DNA from: Nitrospirota bacterium | GTDB lineage: Bacteria; Nitrospirota; UBA9217 | Direction of reading: 5' to 3' | DNA: 64,000 nt | Assembly (NCBI GenBank): GCA_963790205.1 | Contig: CAWBNQ010000005.1 | Span: 288,001 to 352,000, forward strand | Shown here: positions 4,578 through 61,812 of the stretch, in pieces | Layout: each line of letters begins with the position of its first letter | How positions within the stretch are numbered: position 1 is the first letter of the stretch | Position numbers and translations under genes: made by a program | The notes under the pieces: generated by a model | Told to the model about the DNA's origin: nothing | The model's database searches: none | What the model saw: only the letters and a program-made list of their open reading frames with translations

Positions 4578-4680
4578 ACAGGGCGGCTTCGGAGGGCCTC
4601 CCTCCATCTCGTGTGCAGCATGGCAAATAAGAAAGTTTACGATAACATGTATGACCTCCTTATTCGCCTTCGTGGCGCAC
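4578..4680 (-). mobile_element. 5' end of a second group II intron inserted just after the YADD codons (truncated)
   Basis: RT similarity stops at ...TATGCCGACGACT followed by GTGCGCCACGAAGGCG, a canonical GUGYG intron start. Confidence 0.55.
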
Positions 4681-5183
4681 AGTCGTCGGCATATCGAATC
4701 ATTTGAGTGTAGCCTCGCGTCTCTTTCTTTACCTGCTTCTCATACCAGAGGTCGAGAACGTAATGGAGATAGATGTTAGCTAGCACCGGGCTCACAACGC
4801 CGCCCTGTGGCGTGCCCATGTCCGTCTCCATATAATTGCCCTCTTCCATGATACCAGCCTTGAGGAACCGGGCTATGAGGCAAAGAAAGTTAGGGTCGCT
4901 TATCCGCTGCTTCAAGCATTCCATCATCCACCGGTGATCAACCCTGTCGAAGAATTTCTCAACGTCCATATCGACAATGTAATTTATCGGTTCTCTCATG
5001 ATGGCCTTATCCATTATTTCCAGCGCATCATGACAGCTTCGTTTCGGTCGAAAGCCATGGGATATATCTCTGAAGTCTACCTCGTAGATAGATTCGAGGA
5101 TTTTCTTGATGCCCATCTGGACAATTTTGTCTTCAACTACGGGGATACCGAGAGGTCTTTTGCTCTTTTCGTCTTTCGGTATA
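4681..5183 (-). pseudogene. Group II intron reverse transcriptase/maturase internal fragment
   Basis: IPK..KRPLGIP..EDKIVQ, SHGFRPKRSCHDA, DVEKFFD, GTPQGGVVSPVLANIYL, RYADD. Confidence 0.92.
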
Positions 5184-5545: not shown

Positions 5546-5923
5546 TTGACCGTGCAAACCACTGATGATCTCAATCTCATAGAACGCTTCAAGAACGGGG
5601 ATGCATCGGCATTCGAGGAAATCGTCCTCAAATACCAGGATAAGATATACAACCTCTGCAGGCACATGCTCGGGAACGCGCATGATGCGGAGGATGCCGC
5701 ACAGGATGTTTTCCTGAAAGCCTATCAGGCCCTACCGAAAATCCTGCCCGAAGCATCTTTATACACCTGGCTCCATCGCATCGCAACCAACAACCTCATC
5801 CCCTTCCTGAGCGCCCGGCAGAACGTGTTCTTCCCCTTGAGCCAGGTGGACATGAAAAAAGAATGTTTTACCGTCTCTCGCGGCACCATCCATGCTTATT
5901 GCAATCATGGGTTCACGAATTAG
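5546..5923 (+). pseudogene. ECF sigma factor N-terminal fragment (region 2) fused to unrelated sequence
   Basis: GDASAFEEIV, DAEDAAQDVFLKAY, YTWLHRIATN; then NLIPFLSARQNV resembles an ABC ATPase segment; no region 4. Confidence 0.7.
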
Positions 5924-6067
5924 GCAAAGGGAACTTGCAAGGGTCTATATCAAGAGTCAAACACGATAAACTCACCATGGCGACGGGGAAAGAGCTTGGA
6001 TGATGAGAATGCAAGAATAGAGCATGAAACGGAAGATGGCTAATGAATCTAAATTTAGAATTATAGC

Positions 6068-6097
6068 TTGACTTCGCTCTTCGTTTCTATGTATTCT
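6068..6097 (+). promoter_or_regulatory. Sigma70-like promoter of leader ORF copy 1
   Basis: TTGACT-N18-TATTCT; ATG at 6107 with no Shine-Dalgarno. Confidence 0.5.
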
Positions 6098-6106
6098 GTT
6101 GCAACC

Positions 6107-6391
6107 ATGAAATGGCAAGCATTAATCGTTCTTACGGCAATCGCCCTCAGTATCGCTGTTCCACCCTCGTTGCCTTTTCTGTCTGATCACGGCGCGATGG
6201 CGGCAATCGGTGCCCTCGACGTTTGCCACTCGACAACGCCGGCCCTTTCCTCGAACGGCGATATGCCCTGTATAAACGAATGTGCATGCCGTCCTCTTCC
6301 GTTAGCATTGAACAAAGTTGCTGAAATCGCGAATCCCCCTTTTAAACCTTCAGTCATCGTTTTTCAAGACGAACGTCCCCCTAAAGCCTGA
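6107..6391 (+). CDS. 94-aa Cys/His leader protein ending ERPPKA (candidate arrest-peptide uORF), copy 1
   Basis: N-terminal hydrophobic segment, LDVCH, PCINECAC; colinear paralog at 56175-56459. Confidence 0.75.
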   Translation: MKWQALIVLTAIALSIAVPPSLPFLSDHGAMAAIGALDVCHSTTPALSSNGDMPCINECACRPLPLALNKVAEIANPPFKPSVIVFQDERPPKA

Positions 6392-6415
6392 TCAGCAGCC
6401 CTCTCATCACAAAAA

Positions 6416-6586
6416 CCGAAGTCGAGAGCTTTTAATTTCATAACAGCGCAGGCATACGTGCGTGCGTACGTCTGCGCACGGATTGTCCGTTACGGACATT
6501 CCTCCCCTTTAAGCTCGGCTCCGCTTCGGCATATCCGCGATCTCATGCTCGCACATGATGATGTGATCGAAGCCGAGTCGTTTTTT
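6416..6586 (+). promoter_or_regulatory. Conserved structured RNA, candidate attenuator, copy 1
   Basis: 6516-6528 pairs with 6568-6580 followed by T6; CCGAAGT (6416-6422) can alternatively pair with GCTTCGG (6523-6529). Confidence 0.6.
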
Positions 6587-6687
6587 CGACTCCCGATGGT
6601 GAAATTCGTATTTTTCAATTGTGCACGGCAAATCAATCTTCAATGCTGCAACGCATTGAATAATCTCACGTGGCAGGAGGCTATATC

Positions 6688-7485
6688 ATGAATAGCACGG
6701 AAACGAAAAATGAACTTTCCAGAAGAGATATGCTGATCACCGGCGGAAAGATCGCGGCAGGCGCTGCGATAGCATCCATGGCAGTCCTCAGCGCGGTAAA
6801 AAAATCTGATGCTTACGAAAACACGGGAGCGGCGGTATTCAAGTATGCAAAGCTGGACCCGCGCGAAGTAGGCCAAATAACATATGATAACTACTTCAAG
6901 AGATGGTGCACGTCCTCGGTCATTGCCGGTTTTGCCGAGAACCTGAAGAAGAAGGGCGCGGCCGGATGGAATGATTTTCCGATTGATGCCTACCGATGGG
7001 CGCACGGCGGGTTCGCGGGCTGGGGCACGCTGTGCGGCACCATGCCCGGCGCGGGAGTAATCATCGGTCTCGTGACCAAGGACACCGACGTAGCCGAAGC
7101 AATGACCAATGACCTTGCTTTTTATTATTCGTATACGGACCTGCCGAGCTTCACGCCGGCAAAGGTGCAGAAGGCCCCGATCAAGCATATGACCATGTCC
7201 GGGACCCCCATCTGCCATATTTCCGTTGGGAAGTGGATGCGGGCGGAAGGAGTCGGCTTCCTGACGAATGAGCGGCAGGAGCGGTGCGCCCGCATGGCAG
7301 CAAACGTTGCTATGGAAGCGGCCGGGATGCTGAACGAGTACCATGATACCGGGTCGTATAAACCGAAACACAAGCCGCTCTACAATGTTATCGCGAACGG
7401 CATTACCTCTCAGAACAACTGCTCGGACTGCCACGGCCAGAACCCGCCGTCGCCGAGAGAGACCTACGAGTCTTTGGAAAAGTAA
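6688..7485 (+). CDS. Split-Soret cytochrome c-like protein (C-GCAxxG-C-C family), Tat-exported
   Basis: AGGAGG RBS; SRRDML twin-arginine signal; GTLCG, ICHIS, ERCAR and C-terminal CSDCH. Confidence 0.82.
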   Translation: MNSTETKNELSRRDMLITGGKIAAGAAIASMAVLSAVKKSDAYENTGAAVFKYAKLDPREVGQITYDNYFKRWCTSSVIAGFAENLKKKGAAGWNDFPIDAYRWAHGGFAGWGTLCGTMPGAGVIIGLVTKDTDVAEAMTNDLAFYYSYTDLPSFTPAKVQKAPIKHMTMSGTPICHISVGKWMRAEGVGFLTNERQERCARMAANVAMEAAGMLNEYHDTGSYKPKHKPLYNVIANGITSQNNCSDCHGQNPPSPRETYESLEK

Positions 7486-7722: not shown

Positions 7723-7913
7723 AAAGTTTGATTTAATACAGCCCTGAACGTCATTGTAGTTACGTTTAAAAATGTAAAAGGAAATTTAATGAGTTTCTGG
7801 AGAGTACCGTATATGCGGTTTAAGATCAGCACTAAAATGAGCAAGCTTGCAAAAGCTTGTTTATTATCCTGCGAGCAGCGGTGCCTCTTGAATACAAGAC
7901 AGGAGATCAGCCA

Positions 7914-8267
7914 GTGAAAATCGTCATACTATCACTATTGCTGGCGCTCGCCCTGCCCGTTTTTGCGAATGCCGGTCAGGTCGGAACCTCGGCGCCGGAC
8001 TTCGGTCTCGCAGAGGTGAACGGCAAAGCAGTCACCTTGAAGCAGTTCAGGGGCAAGGTCGTGTTCCTTGACTTCTGGGCGCCCTGGTGCGATCCCTGCC
8101 AAGAAGCATTCCCCTCACTCGACGCACTTTACAGGAAATATAGCAGTGACGGACTTGAAGTAATCGGAATATCTATCGATCCCTCCGAAAAACTTGTAGC
8201 TGAATTTCTGCAAAAGGTCCCGGTTGCGTTTACGGTCCTTATCGACAACATTTTTACAGATGCGTAG
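7914..8267 (+). pseudogene. TlpA-like thiol-disulfide oxidoreductase, C-terminally truncated
   Basis: GKVVFLDFWAPWCDPC; ends early relative to the paralog at 56968-57456. Confidence 0.8.
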
Positions 8268-11033: not shown

Positions 11034-12138
11034 TAATACAAACGCAGTAAATATTGTTACACTTTAACCATACTTTATGTTATTCTGGGGGCATGAAAAC
11101 ATCCCCTGCAAGCCCAATAAAGGTGTCCAAAGAGCAATTGCTGGCCCTCGCAGAGAAGGTGCCAGGAGCTTGGATCGGCATAAAGATAGCTACCCTCCTC
11201 TTGGTAATGGAGGGTCAACGACCGGGGTGGATCTCAGAAGTCCTAGGCCAGACCCGGATGAACGTAAACCGCTGGACGCGGGCGGTAAACAAGGACGGAG
11301 TAGAAGCCCTTGTCCCGAAAAAGCAGTCAGGCCGTCCAGTTCGGATGACTCCTAAGATCGTAGCTCAGCTAGAGCTTCAACTGGAGGAATCGCCCCAGAA
11401 GTTCGGCTTAAATCGTATTCGATGGGATGGCCCCACTTTGGCAACTCATTTACAGCGCCAGTTCGGGATAAAGCTGAAAGTCCGTCAGGCCCAATACTGG
11501 ATGCATCAACTTGGGTATCGGTTAAAGCGAGCCAATCACGTTTATCTCCAGGCAAAGGCAGAAGACGCGAAGAAGTTTGCCAGGAGCCTAAAAAAAACTC
11601 AAAACGCTGGGTCCTAAAGAAACTGTGGTTTTTCAGGACGAATGCGGTTTTACTCTGCACCCTCGGCTTGGCCGCGGCTGGGCGCTCATCGGGAAACGGT
11701 TGAAAGTGCCGACAACCAGCCAGCATCAGAAACGTTTGAATGTTTCCGGCTGGGTGGCTCCTCTTCTGGCTCGTGCCGGCGTCATCCAAACGGAACGTGG
11801 CAACCGAGAAGGTTTTCTCAAAGTGCTGCGGCACCTTTATAGCCAGCTTCGTGGCTACACTATCTGGCTGTATGTTGACCGAGCTCGTTGGCATAGGGGT
11901 GACCCAATCCGGGAGTTTCTCAGAAAGCATAAACGACTCCGGATTGTGTACTTACCACCATATCAGCCTGCCTTGAATATGCAGGAGCGCATATGGCGCC
12001 AGATTCGCTATGAATCAACTACCAACCGGTGGTTCGATAACCTTGACGCAATCTGGGCAACGGTCCAAAGGACGCTTGACTCGTGGTCAAAGCACAAAGT
12101 CAGGCGACTTTGTAACATTACTTAGTGCGTTTGTATTA
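11034..12138 (+). mobile_element. IS630 family insertion sequence
   Basis: Terminal IR TAATACAAACGCA(G/C)TAA including flanking TA; two-ORF transposase. Confidence 0.92.
11093..12125 (+). CDS. IS630 transposase (orfA HTH + orfB DDE, joined by a -1 frameshift at the A8 run 11590-11597)
   Basis: FQDECGF, YVDRARWH, YLPPYQPALNMQERIW. Confidence 0.9.
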
Positions 12139-14874: not shown

Positions 14875-15596
14875 CAATAGCGATGAGCTGACCCACGCGC
14901 CGTAGGCGTTGGGTCGAGCGACAGGTGTACGCCCGGCACGGGCGTGAGCTTATGGGGTGCAAGTCCCCTATACGAGAACCGATGCTATCACAAGTACGAG
15001 CCAATGACAAGGGCGGAAGGGCGACCGACTGTCTGGAGGAAGCCTAGCGGCGAACGTGCGAGCCGACGGACAGAAACCGCATACAAGGCTCAGCCCTCGG
15101 GCAAGTCAGCACCACATGACGAAGCCCACCGGTTCAGAGGGTAGGGTAAATGCGGTGGTTGTGCACGGAAAGTTCACGCTCTTATCCGGGGAGATCTGCA
15201 CGCCAGATACGAGTCCCAATACGGGAACCACGAACCAGACAGCAATCTCATGACGAACCCCTATAGCGCCGTTTCTGGAAACAGAGACGGTGAGCGTGCA
15301 GAAGTCAGCAGACGGCATAGTAGTCCCGCAATTGGGACGAAGGCCAGAACGCGGAAATGAGTGGAGCATCTGATAAGCTCGGTATCGGCGATGAATCCGA
15401 ACGGATGAGCCAGATGTCGGCGCGTTATGGATTGCTTCCACTCGATCACGTTGCAGTGGAAAGAGTTGAATCCATCGTGGATGTGGTTCAATGTCCGGCG
15501 ACGGCCCGATGATTTCCGCGAACCGCCTGGTGCGGACCCGCATGCCAGGTGGTGTGGAAGCTGGGGGGAGAAATCCCCCCGGCTACACGATTAGAT
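14875..15596 (-). other. Integron attC site interrupted by a group II intron
   Basis: Removing 14927-15591 restores ATCTAAC-N5-GCTCGACCC...GGGTCAGC-N5-GCTATTG (R'' intact, L boxes with an extra-helical base, R' degenerate). Confidence 0.65.
14927..15591 (+). ncRNA. ORF-less group IIC (attC-type) intron
   Basis: 5' GTACGCCCGGCACGGGCG; short IIC domain V GAACCGCCTGGTGCGGACCCGCATGCCAGGTGGTG at 15520; domain VI and 3' ...ACGAT; no RT ORF. Confidence 0.85.
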
Positions 15597-24290: not shown

Positions 24291-24336
24291 AAAAAGGCCG
24301 AGCATACCAAAGGCATCATCCTTCGGCAGCTCGGCC
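24291..24336 (-). terminator. Intrinsic terminator overlapping the riboswitch 3' end
   Basis: GGCCGAGC...GCTCGGCC followed by TTTTTATTT. Confidence 0.75.
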
Positions 24337-24400
24337 GTCTTGGTCTTTTAAGACCCGTCGCTTTCCGTCCCCCTCTTGCGAAGGGTTTGGCTTTATCGTG
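24323..24400 (-). ncRNA. c-di-GMP-I (GEMM-I) riboswitch aptamer
   Basis: CGATAAAGCCAAACCC-TTCGCAAGA-GGGGGACGGAAAGCGACGGGTCT...GACGGCCGAGCTGCCGA. Confidence 0.9.
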
Positions 24401-47544: not shown

Positions 47545-47620
47545 TGGTGGACGAGAAGGGGCTCGAACCCTCGACCCCCGCATTGCGAACGCGGTGCTCT
47601 CCCAGCTGAGCTACTCGCCC
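47545..47620 (-). tRNA. tRNA-Ala (CGC)
   Basis: 76-nt cloverleaf GGGCGAG...CTCGTCCACCA, G3:U70 pair, anticodon loop TTCGCAA. Confidence 0.96.
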
Positions 47621-55988: not shown

Positions 55989-56138
55989 GTTTAAAATTAC
56001 AGCATTTACCGGAGGGTGTCAACAAGGAACTTGAATTTTTTCATCGGGATAATGATAAAAAGGGCAACAATGAGGCCGTTAAAACAGGGCTGCCGGCATG
56101 AAAGGGGCGGTTAAAAACATTAAAACTAGAATTTTATG

Positions 56139-56167
56139 TTGACAGCTTTTTTTTTAAGCTTTATAGT
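56139..56167 (+). promoter_or_regulatory. Sigma70 promoter of leader ORF copy 2
   Basis: TTGACA-N17-TATAGT; ATG at 56175. Confidence 0.75.
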
Positions 56168-56174
56168 ACGATGC

Positions 56175-56459
56175 ATGAGATGGAAAGCCATCATTGTGTT
56201 GCTGGCGATCGTGCTCAGCATCGTCGTCCCTCCTTCATTGTCGCTGACGATTGCCGATGGCGGACATTCAATGATCGGAACTCTCGACGTCTGCCACTCG
56301 GCGACCCCTGCCCTGTCATCGAACGGCGACATGCCCTGTATGAACGAATGTCCATGCCATCCTCTTCCTTTAGCGCAGAACAAAGTAGCTGCAATCGCGA
56401 ATCCCCCTTTTAAACCTCTCTTAATCTCTTTTCAAGACGAACATCCTCCGAAACACTAA
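56175..56459 (+). CDS. 94-aa Cys/His leader protein ending EHPPKH (candidate arrest-peptide uORF), copy 2
   Basis: Colinear paralog of 6107-6391. Confidence 0.75.
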   Translation: MRWKAIIVLLAIVLSIVVPPSLSLTIADGGHSMIGTLDVCHSATPALSSNGDMPCMNECPCHPLPLAQNKVAAIANPPFKPLLISFQDEHPPKH

Positions 56460-56473
56460 TCCGTAGTTCAAAA

Positions 56474-56606
56474 CCGAAGTTGTGAGACTTCCTCCCCGGA
56501 AAAGGCATGCGCGTGCGTGTGCTTATTAAGCTCGACTCCGCTTCGGCAATATCCGTCATCGCTATCCGTTCTTACATGATATTTCTGAAGCGGAGTCGTC
56601 TTTTCT
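56474..56606 (+). promoter_or_regulatory. Conserved structured RNA, candidate attenuator, copy 2
   Basis: 56533-56546 pairs with 56585-56598 (14 bp, one G:U) followed by TCTTTTCT; CCGAAGT at 56474-56480 is an alternative partner. Confidence 0.62.
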
Positions 56607-56677: not shown

Positions 56678-56917
56678 ATGAAGGCGGACAATGTCACGTT
56701 TCTCACGCCTGAAAGGGCCGAGCGGTGCGCACGGGTTGCCGCAACCATCGCGTACAAGACCGCAGAGATGCTCAATGCGTGGCACGCCGCGGGCGGCAAA
56801 TATACGCCGGTCAATAAGCGTTTGGCGAATGTGCTGAACAACGGCATTACGTCGCAGAATGATTGCACCGCGTGTCACGGGACCAACGTCCCGACGCCGC
56901 CGTCGGCCAAAAAGTAG
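56678..56917 (+). pseudogene. C-terminal remnant of split-Soret cytochrome c-like gene
   Basis: ERCAR...NGITSQNDCTACHG aligns with the C-terminus of 6688-7485. Confidence 0.8.
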
Positions 56918-56967: not shown

Positions 56968-57456
56968 ATGAAGATCATCGGCACACTGTTCCTGTTTCTT
57001 TTGTTGTTCCCCTTTGACGCTGACGCAGTCCAGGTCGGACAACCGGCGCCTGCATTCAGTTTAAAAGATATGAAGGGGAACGTTGTCACCCTTGAAAGCT
57101 TTAAAGGAAAGGTGGTCTTCCTCGATTTCTGGGCGCCCTGGTGTCAGTCCTGCAGAGAGGAGCTTCCGGACATCGATGCCCTGCATAAAAAGTATTCATC
57201 GCGCGGGTTCACGGTCCTCAGCATCTGCATAGAACGGTCCGCGTCCATGGTGAACAAGTATCTGCAGAAAAAGCCGGTCTCTTTTCCGGTCCTCGTCGAT
57301 ACAAAGGGCGAGGTTGCGGATACGTACCGTTTTCCCGGGCTGCCCGCCTCGTTTCTCGTCGGGAAGGACGGCGTAATCCGGCACAAACATATTGGCTATG
57401 GGAAAGAGTTTCTAAATATCTATGAGCAGGAAATAACCGACTTGCTGAATAAATGA
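56968..57456 (+). CDS. TlpA-like thiol-disulfide oxidoreductase
   Basis: Signal peptide, LDFWAPWCQSC, GLPASFLV. Confidence 0.9.
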   Translation: MKIIGTLFLFLLLFPFDADAVQVGQPAPAFSLKDMKGNVVTLESFKGKVVFLDFWAPWCQSCREELPDIDALHKKYSSRGFTVLSICIERSASMVNKYLQKKPVSFPVLVDTKGEVADTYRFPGLPASFLVGKDGVIRHKHIGYGKEFLNIYEQEITDLLNK

Positions 57457-57485
57457 TATCAATCGAACAGAGAGGAATACAAAAA

Positions 57486-59090
57486 ATGAAATCGATAAAA
57501 CCATATGTTCTTGGCCTGGTCCTGGCCTCCATGACGCTGCTGATAACGTCGTGCGGCGGCTCCGGCAGTGCCTCTCCGGCGGCGTACGCCGCATCCACAA
57601 CGATCACCGGTTCCGTGTTTGCAGCCCCTGTCGCCGGCGCAACGATTGTCGTATTGAACTCAAGCGGCACGGCCACCATTGCCGGCCCCGTTATGACGCA
57701 CAGCGATGGAACCTATAGCGTGAGCATTCCGACCGCGGCACTCGCCTCCGATCTTATATTCTCATCAAGCTCCGGGACCTTTACCGATGAGGCCACTGGC
57801 GATCAAACGCCCGCAGGGACCATGTCTGCATACGTGGAAGGCGGCACGCTGACCGCGGGCTTAAAGGTCCATCTTGATCCCTCATCGACTATTATCAATG
57901 GACTCGTGACAACTGGAACGGGCACCTCTTCCACGAATGCGAAGGCGACATTCAACACGGCTTTCGGCTACACGCCGGATACCTCTGTGGAGCCGATGAA
58001 CACAGCCCCGACCGGGACTACGAATGCCCCGAACCGTCTCGCCGCCTTGCGCGCTGCCGCATTCAGCAAACTGGTCCACGATCTCATACTCGGCCCGGAC
58101 AAACAGTTCGAGCTCATCGCAGCTATTACACAGGACCTTTCTGATGATGGTAAACTGAATGGATCAGCCGGATCACTGAACGGTACGCCCATCCCCGAGG
58201 ACATCGAGAACAAGTTCGAAAATGCCCTGGTAAGCTGGCTGACGAACACGACCGTCAATCTCACCGGACTGACCCCGGCTGATATCGCCCCGCTGCCGTT
58301 CGGCAAGGTCGCGTTGACCGATAACTACCGTGTCGAGTATATGCCTGGAATGATGGCGGCAACTGCGAGCAAAACTACTTTCAAACTCAAGATCACGAAC
58401 CGGAGCGACGGCTCTGCGGCAACGGGCCTGGCGGTGTCTCTGATGCCCATGATGCATATGGCCTCAATGGGCCATTCAACGCCCGTGGATTCTGTCGCCG
58501 AAGAAGGTGCCACCGGCATATACGATTGCACGGCCTATTACCTCATGGCTTCCGGAGCAGGCATGGGATATTGGGAACTGAAAGTTATCATCGGCGGCAT
58601 GATGGGCGAAACGGCGACCTTCTATCCTGCTGTCGGCATGGCCATGGGAAGCGACACGGTGCGCACGACGCTCTATGGCCCGGATGACATCGTGAGCAGC
58701 ATGAGCGGCACTCAGTACAACAAATACTATCTCTTCAGGGACGGCGCCGTAACCGCCGCAGCATCTAAGCTCGACCTGTTTATCTCCCACGCTGAAAGCA
58801 TGAATATGAACTTCGTACCCGTATCGGACGGATCGGTCTTGAGCAGTCCCACGGGAACGGTCACGTCGATGACCGTGCAGGCGTCCATGGACAGCGCGTT
58901 CAGCTCGCCGTTGACCGCTGTTGACAATGGGAACGGCCACTGGTCTGTCTCCCCTCTCTCCGGCCTGGTATCGGCGCAAACCACGACGATCTATGTCAAG
59001 CTTAACGTTAACAGCCAGGACAAGACCACGAACGGCGCTGCGGCCTCGGGATCGAATGCTTACGCAACGTTCATCGTAACGCCGCAGTAA
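57486..59090 (+). CDS. Lipoprotein with Met/His-rich YtkA-like segment (possible copper chaperone)
   Basis: LITSC lipobox; PMMHMASMGHSTP, YYLMASG..MGYWELKV. Confidence 0.6.
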   Translation: MKSIKPYVLGLVLASMTLLITSCGGSGSASPAAYAASTTITGSVFAAPVAGATIVVLNSSGTATIAGPVMTHSDGTYSVSIPTAALASDLIFSSSSGTFTDEATGDQTPAGTMSAYVEGGTLTAGLKVHLDPSSTIINGLVTTGTGTSSTNAKATFNTAFGYTPDTSVEPMNTAPTGTTNAPNRLAALRAAAFSKLVHDLILGPDKQFELIAAITQDLSDDGKLNGSAGSLNGTPIPEDIENKFENALVSWLTNTTVNLTGLTPADIAPLPFGKVALTDNYRVEYMPGMMAATASKTTFKLKITNRSDGSAATGLAVSLMPMMHMASMGHSTPVDSVAEEGATGIYDCTAYYLMASGAGMGYWELKVIIGGMMGETATFYPAVGMAMGSDTVRTTLYGPDDIVSSMSGTQYNKYYLFRDGAVTAAASKLDLFISHAESMNMNFVPVSDGSVLSSPTGTVTSMTVQASMDSAFSSPLTAVDNGNGHWSVSPLSGLVSAQTTTIYVKLNVNSQDKTTNGAAASGSNAYATFIVTPQ

Positions 59091-59107
59091 TCGTGAGACG
59101 GACACTT

Positions 59108-60088
59108 ATGAATAAACATATCATTAAACTTATCTGCGCGGCCCTCTTCGCGGGGGCCGCATGCCTCTTCTCTTCGAGCGTCTGGGCTGGTTCCTGCTGC
59201 GGAGGCGGGGGCGGAGCTGCCCTGGTCCTGCCGAAGTTCTATGAGAGCATGCTCGACGTCTCCTTTGATATGGAAAAATACGACGGTTTCTGGGACCAGC
59301 ACGGCAAATATACTCCGGACCCGCCAGGGTCCGACCTGCGGCAATACCGGATGAACGTCGGATATGCCTGGCGCCTTGCGCCACGCTGGCAGACCAGCAT
59401 CGCGGTCCCCTACATCTGGAACAATAATAAATATTCAGGCCTTACGTCCCGGACCGACGGCATCGGCGATACCACGCTGAACCTCTGGTATGAAGCTCTG
59501 GATGACATCTCGGCCTGGAAGATCCGGGAGGTGAAGGACCTGGCGCCTTCGATCACGATCGGCCCTTCCCTGCTCGTTCCTACCGGCATATCGCCTTATG
59601 ATAACGTGAAGAGCAGCTTCGATGTGACCGGCCGGGGATTTTACCGGCTCGACGGGAATGTCCTTATCTCGAAGACCCTCCATCCCTGGAGCGCATCCGC
59701 TGCCCTGAGCTATGGCACGTATTTCGAGCGCGCTGTCGACCGTGAGTACGGGAACTATGTCGAACCGTACCACAAAAAGCTGGGGGACCGCTCATCCGCC
59801 GCTGTTTCCGTGAACTATATCTATTACCTCGGGTCCGGCGGCGACACCCTGACCGGTACCGCGTCGCTGTCCCAGTTGCGGGAGGCGAACACGAGCTTCA
59901 ACGGCACACGGAGCCCGTCGAGCGGCATGCGCAAGGACGCTGTCACCGGGACCATCGCTTATTCAAGCACCGATCGCGATTGGGGCGTCAGGGCGTCATG
60001 GTGTCACGCGATCAAGCAGGACGGCTGGGGGGAGAACTTCCCGACCACGGACATCTACACGATAGGAGTCAATTATGGGTTTCGGTAA
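59108..60088 (+). CDS. Putative outer-membrane beta-barrel transporter with N-terminal CC motif
   Basis: Signal peptide then GSCCGGGG; DGIGD, PTG; C-terminal YGF. Confidence 0.65.
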   Translation: MNKHIIKLICAALFAGAACLFSSSVWAGSCCGGGGGAALVLPKFYESMLDVSFDMEKYDGFWDQHGKYTPDPPGSDLRQYRMNVGYAWRLAPRWQTSIAVPYIWNNNKYSGLTSRTDGIGDTTLNLWYEALDDISAWKIREVKDLAPSITIGPSLLVPTGISPYDNVKSSFDVTGRGFYRLDGNVLISKTLHPWSASAALSYGTYFERAVDREYGNYVEPYHKKLGDRSSAAVSVNYIYYLGSGGDTLTGTASLSQLREANTSFNGTRSPSSGMRKDAVTGTIAYSSTDRDWGVRASWCHAIKQDGWGENFPTTDIYTIGVNYGFR

Positions 60089-60632
60089 TATGCGCTGGCT
60101 GGTGTTTCTTCTGGTTCTGCTCGCCGGATGCGGCGGGATGATGGATGATCTCAATCCCTCAGGCAGCGACAAGCGCCCCCCGGCGCTGCCGGGGACCATC
60201 GGCCCTGCCGTAGGCCAGAATGCGCCCGACTTTACGCTGTCCGATACGCTCGGGAACAGCGTTACGCTGTCGTCTGAACTCACGACCACGAACACGAAGG
60301 GCGTGGTCCTCTTCTTCACCATGTGGTGCCCTCTTTGCGACTCCGACATGAGCAATATGCAAAGTTCCATCATTCCCCCCTTCCCAAACGTGCGTTTTTT
60401 CGCAGTTGACTATGTCTCCGGCAGCGTCGCCGGCGCCGCGAGCGCGGAACTCGACAACGGCTTCGTTGGATCGGGTTTCACGGTCCTGGCAGACACGCAG
60501 CAGACCGTCCTGAACCTGTACCAGGCAACGATGGAGACGACGGTCGTCATCGACAAAACCGGCGTGGTCCGGATGAACGAAAGTTACAAAAACGGAGCGC
60601 GGCTCCAGGCCGTACTCTCCGGATTGCCATGA
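60075..60632 (+). CDS. Redoxin-family lipoprotein
   Basis: LAGC lipobox, APDFTL, FTMWCPLC. Confidence 0.85.
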   Translation: MGFGNMRWLVFLLVLLAGCGGMMDDLNPSGSDKRPPALPGTIGPAVGQNAPDFTLSDTLGNSVTLSSELTTTNTKGVVLFFTMWCPLCDSDMSNMQSSIIPPFPNVRFFAVDYVSGSVAGAASAELDNGFVGSGFTVLADTQQTVLNLYQATMETTVVIDKTGVVRMNESYKNGARLQAVLSGLP

Positions 60633-60664
60633 CCAGGCAAGTTAAATAACCGAAGGAGCATATC

Positions 60665-61132
60665 GTGATGAAAGAAAGGTATATCGTCGTCATACTCGCT
60701 GCTGTCCTGCTCTGCTCAGCCCGAACCATCGTATTTGCCCAGGATGATATCAACGAGCACCGCTCGTGCGTCAACTGCGGTATGGACCGAAAAGCCTACG
60801 GATTCAGCAGAATGCTGATCCAGTACGAAGACGGATCCGCTGTGGGAGTTTGCAGCCTTCACTGCGCCGTCGTCGAGCTCGATGCAAACCCAGGGCGCAA
60901 GGTAAAGGCACTTCTCGTCGCCGACCGGGACTCGCGGACGCTGATCAACGCGGAACAAGCGAATTGGGTCATGGGGGGCGGAAAACGCGGCGTAATGACG
61001 CAACAGCCGAAGTGGGCCTTCCGGTCAAGGGACCACGCCGAAGCGTTCATTAAGGCGAACGGCGGGAAGCTCGTTACCTGGGAAGAAGCGCTCGCTGCCG
61101 CGCGTGAGGAGGCGGCCCGGGGGTCTCGATAG
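60665..61132 (+). CDS. NosL-family copper-binding protein
   Basis: CVNCGM, CSLHC, GVM...AF.....AEAF....GG. Confidence 0.8.
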   Translation: MMKERYIVVILAAVLLCSARTIVFAQDDINEHRSCVNCGMDRKAYGFSRMLIQYEDGSAVGVCSLHCAVVELDANPGRKVKALLVADRDSRTLINAEQANWVMGGGKRGVMTQQPKWAFRSRDHAEAFIKANGGKLVTWEEALAAAREEAARGSR

Positions 61133-61353
61133 CTCTTTTCCCGCCTCACCCGTAAGGGAAAATGACGAGGGCACCCGCGTCTCCTTCGGGCCGATCGTGG
61201 TGGTGCGTAGACCGCAAAGCAGGCCTCCCGTGAACGGACTTTACTTTTTACCCGCTTCACGTTATTATGCACCAAAGGTCAAGCGGCCTGCTTCAGCCTG
61301 AAATGTAAGAGTTCATTCACAGGTGGAAAGTTGCCCTAACACTCCCTTTTTGT

Positions 61354-61812
61354 ATGATGATCACCGGCGTTCATGACCATAAACTCTGCGCAACTGTCGC
61401 ATTGTTCCTTTTCTTTTCCCTGCTTGGCGCGGCGTGCACCAGTCAACAAAAATACGCTTCGCCGACCGTCGTTGGTTCCGCCGTCGTCATAGAGGTATCG
61501 TCTCTTCAGCCTGAAACCCCGCGTTTTTTCACTTACCAATACAACGACAAGAATATCAATTTTTTTGTGCTGCGAATGGACACCGGAGTTCAGTCCTATC
61601 TCGACGCCTGCGCAAGCTGTTATCCTCATAAACGCGGATATCGCTGCGAGGACGGCTCCGTGGTCTGCAGGGCCTGCGGACTGAAATTTTCAGTCTATCA
61701 ACTTGAGAAAGGGCTCGGCGGATGTTATCCGATCAAGCTCGAAGGCAAGCTGGAAAACGGCAGATATCTCATCCCCCTTGCATCGCTGGAGGCGGAGGCG
61801 GGTAAATTTTAA
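61354..61812 (+). CDS. DUF2318-like Fe-S/Cys-rich protein
   Basis: DACASC....GY....VVCRAC...GGCYPI. Confidence 0.75.
   Translation: MMITGVHDHKLCATVALFLFFSLLGAACTSQQKYASPTVVGSAVVIEVSSLQPETPRFFTYQYNDKNINFFVLRMDTGVQSYLDACASCYPHKRGYRCEDGSVVCRACGLKFSVYQLEKGLGGCYPIKLEGKLENGRYLIPLASLEAEAGKF

Follow-up and report, generated by a model that had tools for sequence, protein, structure and literature searches.

A conserved leader cassette ahead of envelope metal and haem genes in anaerobic Nitrospirota, a candidate ribosome-stalling attenuator

In the classical attenuators trpL and hisL, a leader ORF is followed by mutually exclusive antiterminator and intrinsic terminator structures. In CruR of Bordetella pertussis (DUF2946, PF11162) and CutF of Rhodobacter capsulatus, a nascent exported peptide reports copper to its own ribosome (PMC9426467; 10.1101/2025.02.05.636593), and the outputs known for leaders of this type, in the parts of these papers available to us, are Rho-dependent termination and the unmasking of a Shine-Dalgarno (SD) sequence (PMC9426467; PMC9973294). 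CruR carries CxxC at residues 90-93 and RAPP at residues 139-142, the spacing of which is conserved and functionally needed (PMC9426467), and the stall of CutF occurs at a run of prolines other than RAPP, one that is normally overcome with the help of EF-P (10.1101/2025.02.05.636593). The arginine at the first position of RAPP peptides is irreplaceable, and RAPP leaders ahead of thioredoxin genes are reported (PMC12992588).

The window considered here, a stretch of 64,000 nucleotides from a Nitrospirota genome (GCA_963790205.1), contains two ORFs that an earlier note, made from the sequence alone, had proposed as candidate divergent metal-sensing analogues of DUF2946 leaders. Both are ORFs of 94 codons running from ATG to stop (Table 1), share 71% identity across 93 residues (tblastn E 4e-39), a likeness which is therefore not due to chance, and carry the LDVCH, PC(I/M)NEC(A/P)C and FQDE(R/H)PPK motifs already pointed out in that note. 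Comparison with relatives revealed a cassette composed of a palindromic box, a promoter, an exported-type leader ORF and a terminator/antiterminator RNA, conserved in order and parts; the note had missed the box, the promoter and the RNA. With a probability of roughly 0.4, we read it as a ribosome-stalling attenuator that would keep the downstream genes on until copper, at Cys40 of the leader, releases the stall. Control by a stalling leader of some kind, be it this one or one of the two variants discussed below that differ in signal or in polarity, is on the whole likely.

Table 1. Coordinates of the features belonging to the two leader cassettes and their operons in the window.
Feature	Positions	Strand	Remarks
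Copy 1 palindromic box	6050..6065	.	TAAARTT-NN-AAYTTTA type; putative operator; adjoins the -35 hexamer
Copy 1 promoter, sigma-70 type	6068..6097	+	TTGACT-18-TATTCT; ends 9 nt before the ATG; without Shine-Dalgarno
Copy 1 leader ORF	6107..6391	+	94 aa; hydrophobic residues about 5-19; Cys40 codon 6224-6226; Pro91-Pro92 codons 6377-6382
Copy 1 arm A	6416..6428	+	CCGAAG..GAG; 5' strand of predicted antiterminator
Copy 1 arm B	6511..6529	+	Common to antiterminator (A:B) and terminator (B:C)
Copy 1 arm C and six-T run	6569..6586	+	Stem with C-C mismatch; rival hairpin
Split-Soret-like cytochrome c	6688..7485	+	Twin-Arg-like signal; C_GCAxxG domain; C-terminal CxxCH; SD 6676-6680
TlpA-like redoxin, truncated	7857..8267	+	136 aa, against 182 aa in the C10 copy
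Copy 2 palindromic box	56121..56136	.	
Copy 2 promoter, sigma-70 type	56139..56167	+	TTGACA-17-TATAGT; ends 7 nt before the ATG
Copy 2 leader ORF	56175..56459	+	94 aa; Cys40 codon 56292-56294; PP codons 56445-56450
Copy 2 arm A	56474..56486	+	
Copy 2 arm B	56528..56546	+	
Copy 2 arm C and T-rich run	56587..56605	+	Terminator hairpin z -4.7
Split-Soret-like gene, C-terminal remnant	56678..56917	+	79 aa; 57% identical; behind copy 2
Copy 2 operon	56968..61812	+	TlpA-like redoxin, 535-aa lipoprotein, Cys-tipped outer-membrane protein, thioredoxin lipoprotein, NosL, FtrD/DUF2318

The leader family is carried by anaerobic Nitrospirota, magnetotactic ones included. A single-sequence search recovered 128 relatives, nearly all of them 94 residues long, and a profile search 468; all 40 genome loci from a GTDB scan were titled Nitrospirota or a rank below it. 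A 35-row profile matched 80 of 301 Nitrospirota genomes and 48 of the 63 in this organism's own family, with no match in the 50, 28 and 25 genomes of three other Nitrospirota families. Distant members include those of the cultured Dissulfurispira thermophila (P0166), of Ca. Magnetominusculus and of Ca. Magnetomonas. The 120 distinct leaders compared here are non-independent relatives, near-duplicates and this genome's own copies included. The genome holds four leader copies in total, the two outside the window being a 98% identical one (C10:122468-122187(-)), of which copy 1 is a near-duplicate, and a divergent one (C1:818404). The surroundings of copy 1 are decayed, with a reverse-transcriptase fragment, a truncated ECF sigma factor, a split transposase and group II intron domains (window 4637-5116, 5546-5923, 11054-12125, 15015-15345).

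The leader is under coding constraint, strongest around the cysteine and the tail: pN/pS is 0.43 overall, 0.18 over codons 34-55 and 0.19 over codons 85-93 (92 sequences). In the 103 aligned sequences used for residue counts (101 of the 120 listed matches plus the two window copies), Cys40 and both prolines of the C-terminal PP are invariant (103/103), followed by Glu89 (101), His41 (100), Gln87 and Asp88 (99 each), Cys55 (94), Arg90 (92), Cys61 (64) and Cys59 (58). Only the cysteine of LDVC (23/23) and the PP are invariant in 23 distant members, where His41 and Cys55 are variable or lost. The PP stands two residues before the stop in 112 of 120 sequences, and the distance from the cysteine to the first proline is 51 residues in 103 of 111 close members with the motif and in 16 of 21 distant ones. 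Among the 112 full-length leaders derived from DNA, on which motif counts are based and which are all 91-98 residues long, CxxxCxC occurs in 33 and any CxxC in 6, DERPPK in 75 and DEHPPK in 13, and RxPP in none (0/112). The conservation that the earlier note had looked to in homologues thus holds for the PP and for a single cysteine and fails for the cysteine cluster, so that CxxxCxC has to be abandoned as the metal sensor, and the RAPP-type arrest motif with it, as the family arginine sits at the variable x position of RxPP (R, H, Q, L or Y; R, H, Q or Y in distant members). The hydrophobic N-terminal segment, also recognized at first sight, is a general property of the relatives (15-residue hydropathy median 2.8, minimum 1.9 in 112 leaders); it is a putative export signal with no clear cleavage site and could instead be a membrane anchor. 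A lipobox at Cys40 was rejected, the hydrophobic segment appearing too distant for it.

The codons for F86, Q87, D88, E89 and K93 (window 6362-6385) are each fixed to a single synonymous choice in 92-98% of the 92 close relatives, and this choice mostly runs counter to the codon preference of the genome; uniformity in the same sequences is lower at D38, C40, H41 and C55 (51-70%), and the lock fades in distant families. A UUCA hairpin in codons 84-89 was rejected as its cause, since one of its six pairs is mismatched in 99 of 117 sequences and compensatory changes are nearly absent; for an internal ECF or antisense promoter in these 3' codons, spacing and -10 are poor by eye.

The distance from Cys90 to Pro141 in CruR is also 51 residues, the same as in the leader family, and about fifty residues span the exit tunnel and the translocon. 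The analogy with CruR and CutF put forward in the earlier note therefore holds by geometry and not through the CxxxCxC motif; it stands for position, PP, N-terminus, operons and the 51-residue distance, and falls for CxxxCxC and the RAPP-type motif. As described in PMC9426467, CruR resembles the family in being the first gene of a metal-uptake operon with a predicted export signal, a cysteine 51 residues before the first proline, a PP 2-3 residues from the stop, a long intergenic region and control by premature termination, where the stalled state is on (as is proposed here). It differs in having CxxC and RAPP instead of one cysteine and E-x-PP, Rho-dependent termination instead of an intrinsic terminator with antiterminator, and a 45-nt 5' leader, whereas the leaders studied here are apparently leaderless. 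With CutF and the CutF-like class (PMC9973294; 10.1101/2025.02.05.636593), the family has in common a length below 150 residues, a signal-like N-terminus, a cysteine in the mature part, a proline motif other than RAPP among the last 15 residues and a co-directional metal gene within 1 kb. The operational filters of PMC9973294 likewise concern features found in the family (fewer than 150 residues, PP in the last 15 residues, a co-directional next gene), and its protein list (File S1) may include some of its members. The CutF hairpin at the SD recalls the terminator-less copies of the family, which are predicted to hide the next SD; CutF differs by its CxxxC, PPP and SD hairpin and by copper inducing the stall, most family copies being predicted to use a transcription switch. 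The portion of 10.1101/2022.11.11.516240 available to us names no Nitrospirota among the CutF-like class, and the searchable text of three supplements of PMC9426467 contains neither Nitrospir nor Thermodesulfovibrio.

Membership in DUF2946 was rejected. Pfam PF11162 has no match in either window copy at E up to 1, and matches 1 of 103 relatives at E 0.1 and 1 of 23 distant members at E 0.055. Two RAPP/HAPP leaders of the same genome match it at E 0.0024 and 0.0061, below the cut-off, and provide the positive control for this test; profile comparison of the leader family with one of them gave a probability of 5.5%. In the leader family, CxxC is scarce (6/112) and RAPP absent (0/112). The two DUF2946-like leaders of 89 residues (HHH, CxxC, RAPP or HAPP; L041:3947-4216(-) and 5562-5831(-)) lie beside leader copy 4 and are both divergent from it; behind one of them come the genes for a beta-barrel and ZnuA, behind the other that for an M23-like peptidase. 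In the ESM Atlas, the nearest named clusters are DUF6660, CzcI, DUF6769 and DUF2946 (0.91-0.93, with only 90-114 shared features), no more than a lead to a possible distant kinship. ApdA, ApdP and SecM (RAPP/RGPP; PMC12992588, PMC10987492) are likewise small leaders of exported type with two prolines at the C-terminus, and TonB receptors, PCuAC and thioredoxins are among the envelope proteins encoded behind such leaders; they differ by the irreplaceable arginine two residues before the P-site proline, where the leader family has Glu or Asp. In the literature searched, which covered few subscription journals and in part only excerpts, we found no description of the leader family, of an E-x-PP arrest motif or of intrinsic termination as the output of a leader like CruR or CutF; the listed matches to DERPP, KERPP and LDVCH were all unrelated words.

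Upstream of the leader, TTGAC(A/T/C) begins 33-41 nt before the ATG in 112 of 114 cases, the distance from the end of the -10 element to the ATG is 6-7 nt in 88 of 112, and no SD-like word precedes the ORF (0/115), a configuration that predicts an apparently leaderless mRNA. Upstream TTG or ATG starts (forms of 100-134 residues) were rejected, as they overlap the promoter and show no conservation. Of the 7 pairs in the 16-bp palindrome abutting the -35 element, 5.0 are complementary (1.5-3.4 in shifted positions), and the palindrome is kept in distant families. Strict matches to box plus promoter number 21 in 64 genomes; 11 lie at leaders, as assigned by comparison with leader profile matches, and the remaining 10 stand before operons of other kinds, in five cases a beta-propeller operon. 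That such similar operons bear the box and promoter without a leader speaks for a reading in which nothing is sensed, a constitutive proline pause and a leaky terminator would fix an expression ratio, and regulation would lie entirely at the box; we regard it as very doubtful, because it leaves unaccounted for the invariant cysteine at fixed distance, the hydrophobic N-terminus and the purifying selection on codons 34-55.

The box was also seen ahead of a beta-propeller/FtsX-ABC/NosL operon in several genomes and of a multihaem cytochrome, and in this genome ahead of ccsA-hemA-hemC-like and ArsR-led DsrE/oxidoreductase operons, labelled, apart from ArsR, by inspection of their translations. 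These sites beyond the window leaders are G000 C11:148453(-), C14:189544(-) and C5:446901(-), together with loci L159-L175; the ccsA-like gene at the last of the three G000 positions appears frameshifted in the assembly. ArsR is one candidate regulator for the box.

Beyond the leader stop, alignment of the two window copies gave three conserved blocks, here arms A, B and C. Among the 113 close loci with enough sequence, arm B was recognized in 77, and at least four of the 36 others do carry it, with a one-base length change or more divergence; it is present in 10 of 21 distant loci. Pairing was assessed in an alignment of 58 loci, chosen for a near arm A and ordinary B-C spacing, with one poor match excluded and five added. 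B:C is 94.3% paired, 10 of its 19 pairs have changed on both sides, and its covariation exceeds all 500 shuffles (0/500) and all slid controls; along a tree built from 55 leaders, one Watson-Crick pair was swapped for another about 20 separate times. A:B is 97.6% paired and almost invariant, with a single compensatory change. On the tree, the six bases of B for which both A and C are partners underwent 6 changes versus 37 in their C partners, and the remaining B bases 26 versus 34, as expected since B has two pairing partners. B and C lie 50-66 nt apart and are followed by at least five T in the next 10 nt in 63 of 76 loci. The strict terminator pattern matched 23 times in 301 genomes, each time just behind a leader and on the same strand as judged by coordinates (control, 0), and all three strong matches in this genome follow a leader. 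The copy 1 terminator is weak (z -1.7). A simple terminator scanner did not list the B:C terminator, because its loop region is long. The comparison makes the terminator/antiterminator switch real; its trigger, we infer, would be the stalled ribosome. The arrangement recalls trpL and hisL, in which a leader ORF is also closely followed by mutually exclusive antiterminator and terminator, but the present leader is 94 residues long with an export segment and no amino-acid run, and no 1:2 protector was found.

The RNA could also be the whole switch, as a riboswitch or a protein-bound antiterminator, the ORF encoding a small exported protein or serving as a passive coupling device. That A:B is nearly invariant and closes a multi-stem domain, that the terminator prevails unless something holds A:B, and the codon lock at 86-89 and 93 all point that way. 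We nevertheless consider it improbable: the inner stems vary in sequence and length among subgroups, Rfam covariance models give no match at either copy at gathering scores and none for 6340-6700 at E up to 5, the terminator is never found without a leader, and leaders without the RNA still keep the cysteine, the spacing and the PP. Six loci (L037, L039, L050, L069, L111 and L113) have an insert of 100-180 nt between stop and arm A, which by eye is a closed hairpin from about +12 to +16 after the stop, and in L002, L044 and L045 the terminator loop is longer by about 150 nt, which puts B and C about 209 nt apart, with both stem arms kept.

A terminating ribosome has its edge at about +10 after the stop, and in 76 loci arm A starts 12-17 nt after the stop in 43, at 11 nt or less in 9, at 18-26 nt in 12, further away in 7 and was not found in 5; it starts at +25 in copy 1 and at 9-17 nt in 9 of 10 distant copies. 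In most loci it would thus meet the edge of a ribosome that terminates but stay out of reach of one that stalls three codons before. When the coding region is masked, folding models predict that A:B forms in the growing transcript with a probability above 0.8 in 50 of 54 loci, and A:B stays intact in 50 and 42 of 54 when the mask extends past the stop to +10 or +14, respectively; once C is made, equilibrium folding favours the terminator state by a median of 7.3 kcal/mol, with or without a ribosome. Simple occlusion is therefore not reproduced by these models. A coding-region protector of arm A was rejected, as the drop of the A:B probability in naked RNA (median 0.52 versus 1.0) is equalled by shuffled and recoded tails, and the coding tail holds no anti-antiterminator (0.66 real versus 0.68 shuffled).

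The mechanism that we propose would begin with leaderless initiation and engagement of the nascent leader by Sec or SRP, followed by a pause of the ribosome at the C-terminal E-x-P-P. With the ribosome stalled, arm A would stay accessible, A:B would block the terminator, and the metal-uptake and haem/redox genes would be on. A periplasmic signal, most likely Cu(I) at the single conserved cysteine, would release the stall, and movement of the ribosome over the three codons to the stop, or its departure, would let the B:C terminator form. A plain PP stall may be relieved by EF-P, and one cysteine by itself is a poor metal site. Where the terminator is absent and the gap is short, the next SD is predicted to be masked by the PP codons themselves, which would give the same stalled-means-on polarity. 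The SD is predicted to pair with the PP-codon region in 12 of 31 terminator-less copies with a nearby SD-led gene (mean pairing 0.35 versus 0.14 when recoded; p 0.017, kinship ignored) and in 6 of the 7 terminator-less loci whose gap does not exceed 112 nt; it is also predicted in 18 of 61 terminator-bearing loci, and such CCTCC/GGAGG pairing is therefore partly generic. More tentatively, all these parts may belong to one design, in which a leaderless exported nascent chain with a one-cysteine periplasmic sensor and a new acidic E-x-PP arrest motif throws the switch between intrinsic terminator and antiterminator, an output exchanged in other copies for one at the Shine-Dalgarno sequence, and governs the envelope metal and haem regulon of anaerobic Nitrospirota.

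What the cassette would control can be read from the genes behind it. The next long ORF within 1.2 kb is co-directional in 87 of 95 cases, and there is no good promoter between leader and operon: the best sigma-70 match between the stop and the next gene reaches at most 9 of 12 positions in 61 of 62 loci, whereas the one ahead of the leader reaches at least 10 of 12 in 49 of 54. Each window copy does head a haem, thiol and metal operon, as had been surmised (cytochrome c and TlpA for copy 1; TlpA, NosL, FtrD/DUF2318 and others for copy 2), and the homologues, whose neighbourhoods were proposed as a check, agree, with redoxins, C_GCAxxG proteins, TonB receptors, CopC, CopD, SCO1, PCuAC and NosL downstream. 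The 114 ORFs behind close leaders include 20 redoxins, 12 C_GCAxxG proteins, 3 TonB receptors, 2 each of CopC, NosL and FtrD, and one each of PCuAC, NikR, Fe/Mn-SOD and TatA, with CopD and SCO1 further downstream. Another 53 ORFs, 50 of them behind distant leaders, include 9 C_GCAxxG proteins, 8 TonB receptors, 2 NosL and one each of a heavy-metal P-type ATPase, TatA and TatC. The C_GCAxxG gene is related to split-Soret cytochrome c (E 9e-34, below the equivalog cut-off; E 5e-26 against PDB 1h21). A YtkA label for the 535-aa lipoprotein was dropped, no Pfam match being found at E 0.05.

The genes behind the leaders concern metals and haem in the cell envelope, with a bias towards uptake and loading; copper is the best single guess for the signal, a guess and not a finding. 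Most frequent as first genes are those for a haem protein (12 of the 114 ORFs) and for thiol redoxins (20 of 114), not those for copper proteins, and the same attenuator might instead read periplasmic thiol chemistry, haem or cytochrome maturation, another metal or the force of export, its single cysteine forming a mixed disulfide with, or being bound by, a pulling envelope partner. Cys40 being the only invariant cysteine of the distant members, the presence downstream of TatA/TatC, Fe-SOD, NikR and haem-type TonB receptors, the box ahead of ccsA-hemA-hemC-like and ArsR-DsrE-like operons and the RAPP leaders ahead of thioredoxin genes (PMC12992588) agree with this reading, which we hold to be possible if somewhat unlikely, given that the cysteine-to-proline distance is that of a proven copper sensor and that dedicated copper chaperones recur downstream. 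The polarity could also be that of CutF, the signal inducing the stall and copper excess turning the operon on. The plain PP resembles the non-RAPP, EF-P-relieved proline run of CutF (10.1101/2025.02.05.636593), and the heavy-metal P-type ATPase lies downstream at one locus, but the TonB receptors (3 of 114 and 8 of 53 ORFs), together with porins and loading chaperones, point to uptake, and such genes should be on when metal is scarce, which makes this polarity unlikely.

Should the copper-released attenuator prove true, it would add to the known outputs a third, intrinsic attenuation, together with arrest at a motif other than RAPP and a sensor reduced to one cysteine, placed at the 51-residue distance, in effect a Yanofsky-type attenuator wired across the membrane. 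Relative to CruR and CutF, the leaderless start and the intrinsic attenuator would be new, in an anatomy that, judged from sequence, appears CruR-like and not DUF2946. As start, stall and terminator sites lie within about 550 nt and the intrinsic terminator is Rho-free, purified coupled transcription-translation could test the whole circuit. In anaerobic and magnetotactic members of the Nitrospirota, the cassette would also single out envelope genes, as yet uncharacterised, as one regulon. Among the proteins encoded behind leaders are outer-membrane beta-barrel-like proteins whose mature part opens with cysteine pairs (CDFC, CC, CxCxC-like), possibly metal-capture tips, seen at L009:2226, L027:1828, L041:6426, L137, L154 and window 59093-60088. 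Elsewhere in the window, a c-di-GMP-I riboswitch and a tRNA lie at 24321-24400(-) and 47548-47620(-), respectively.
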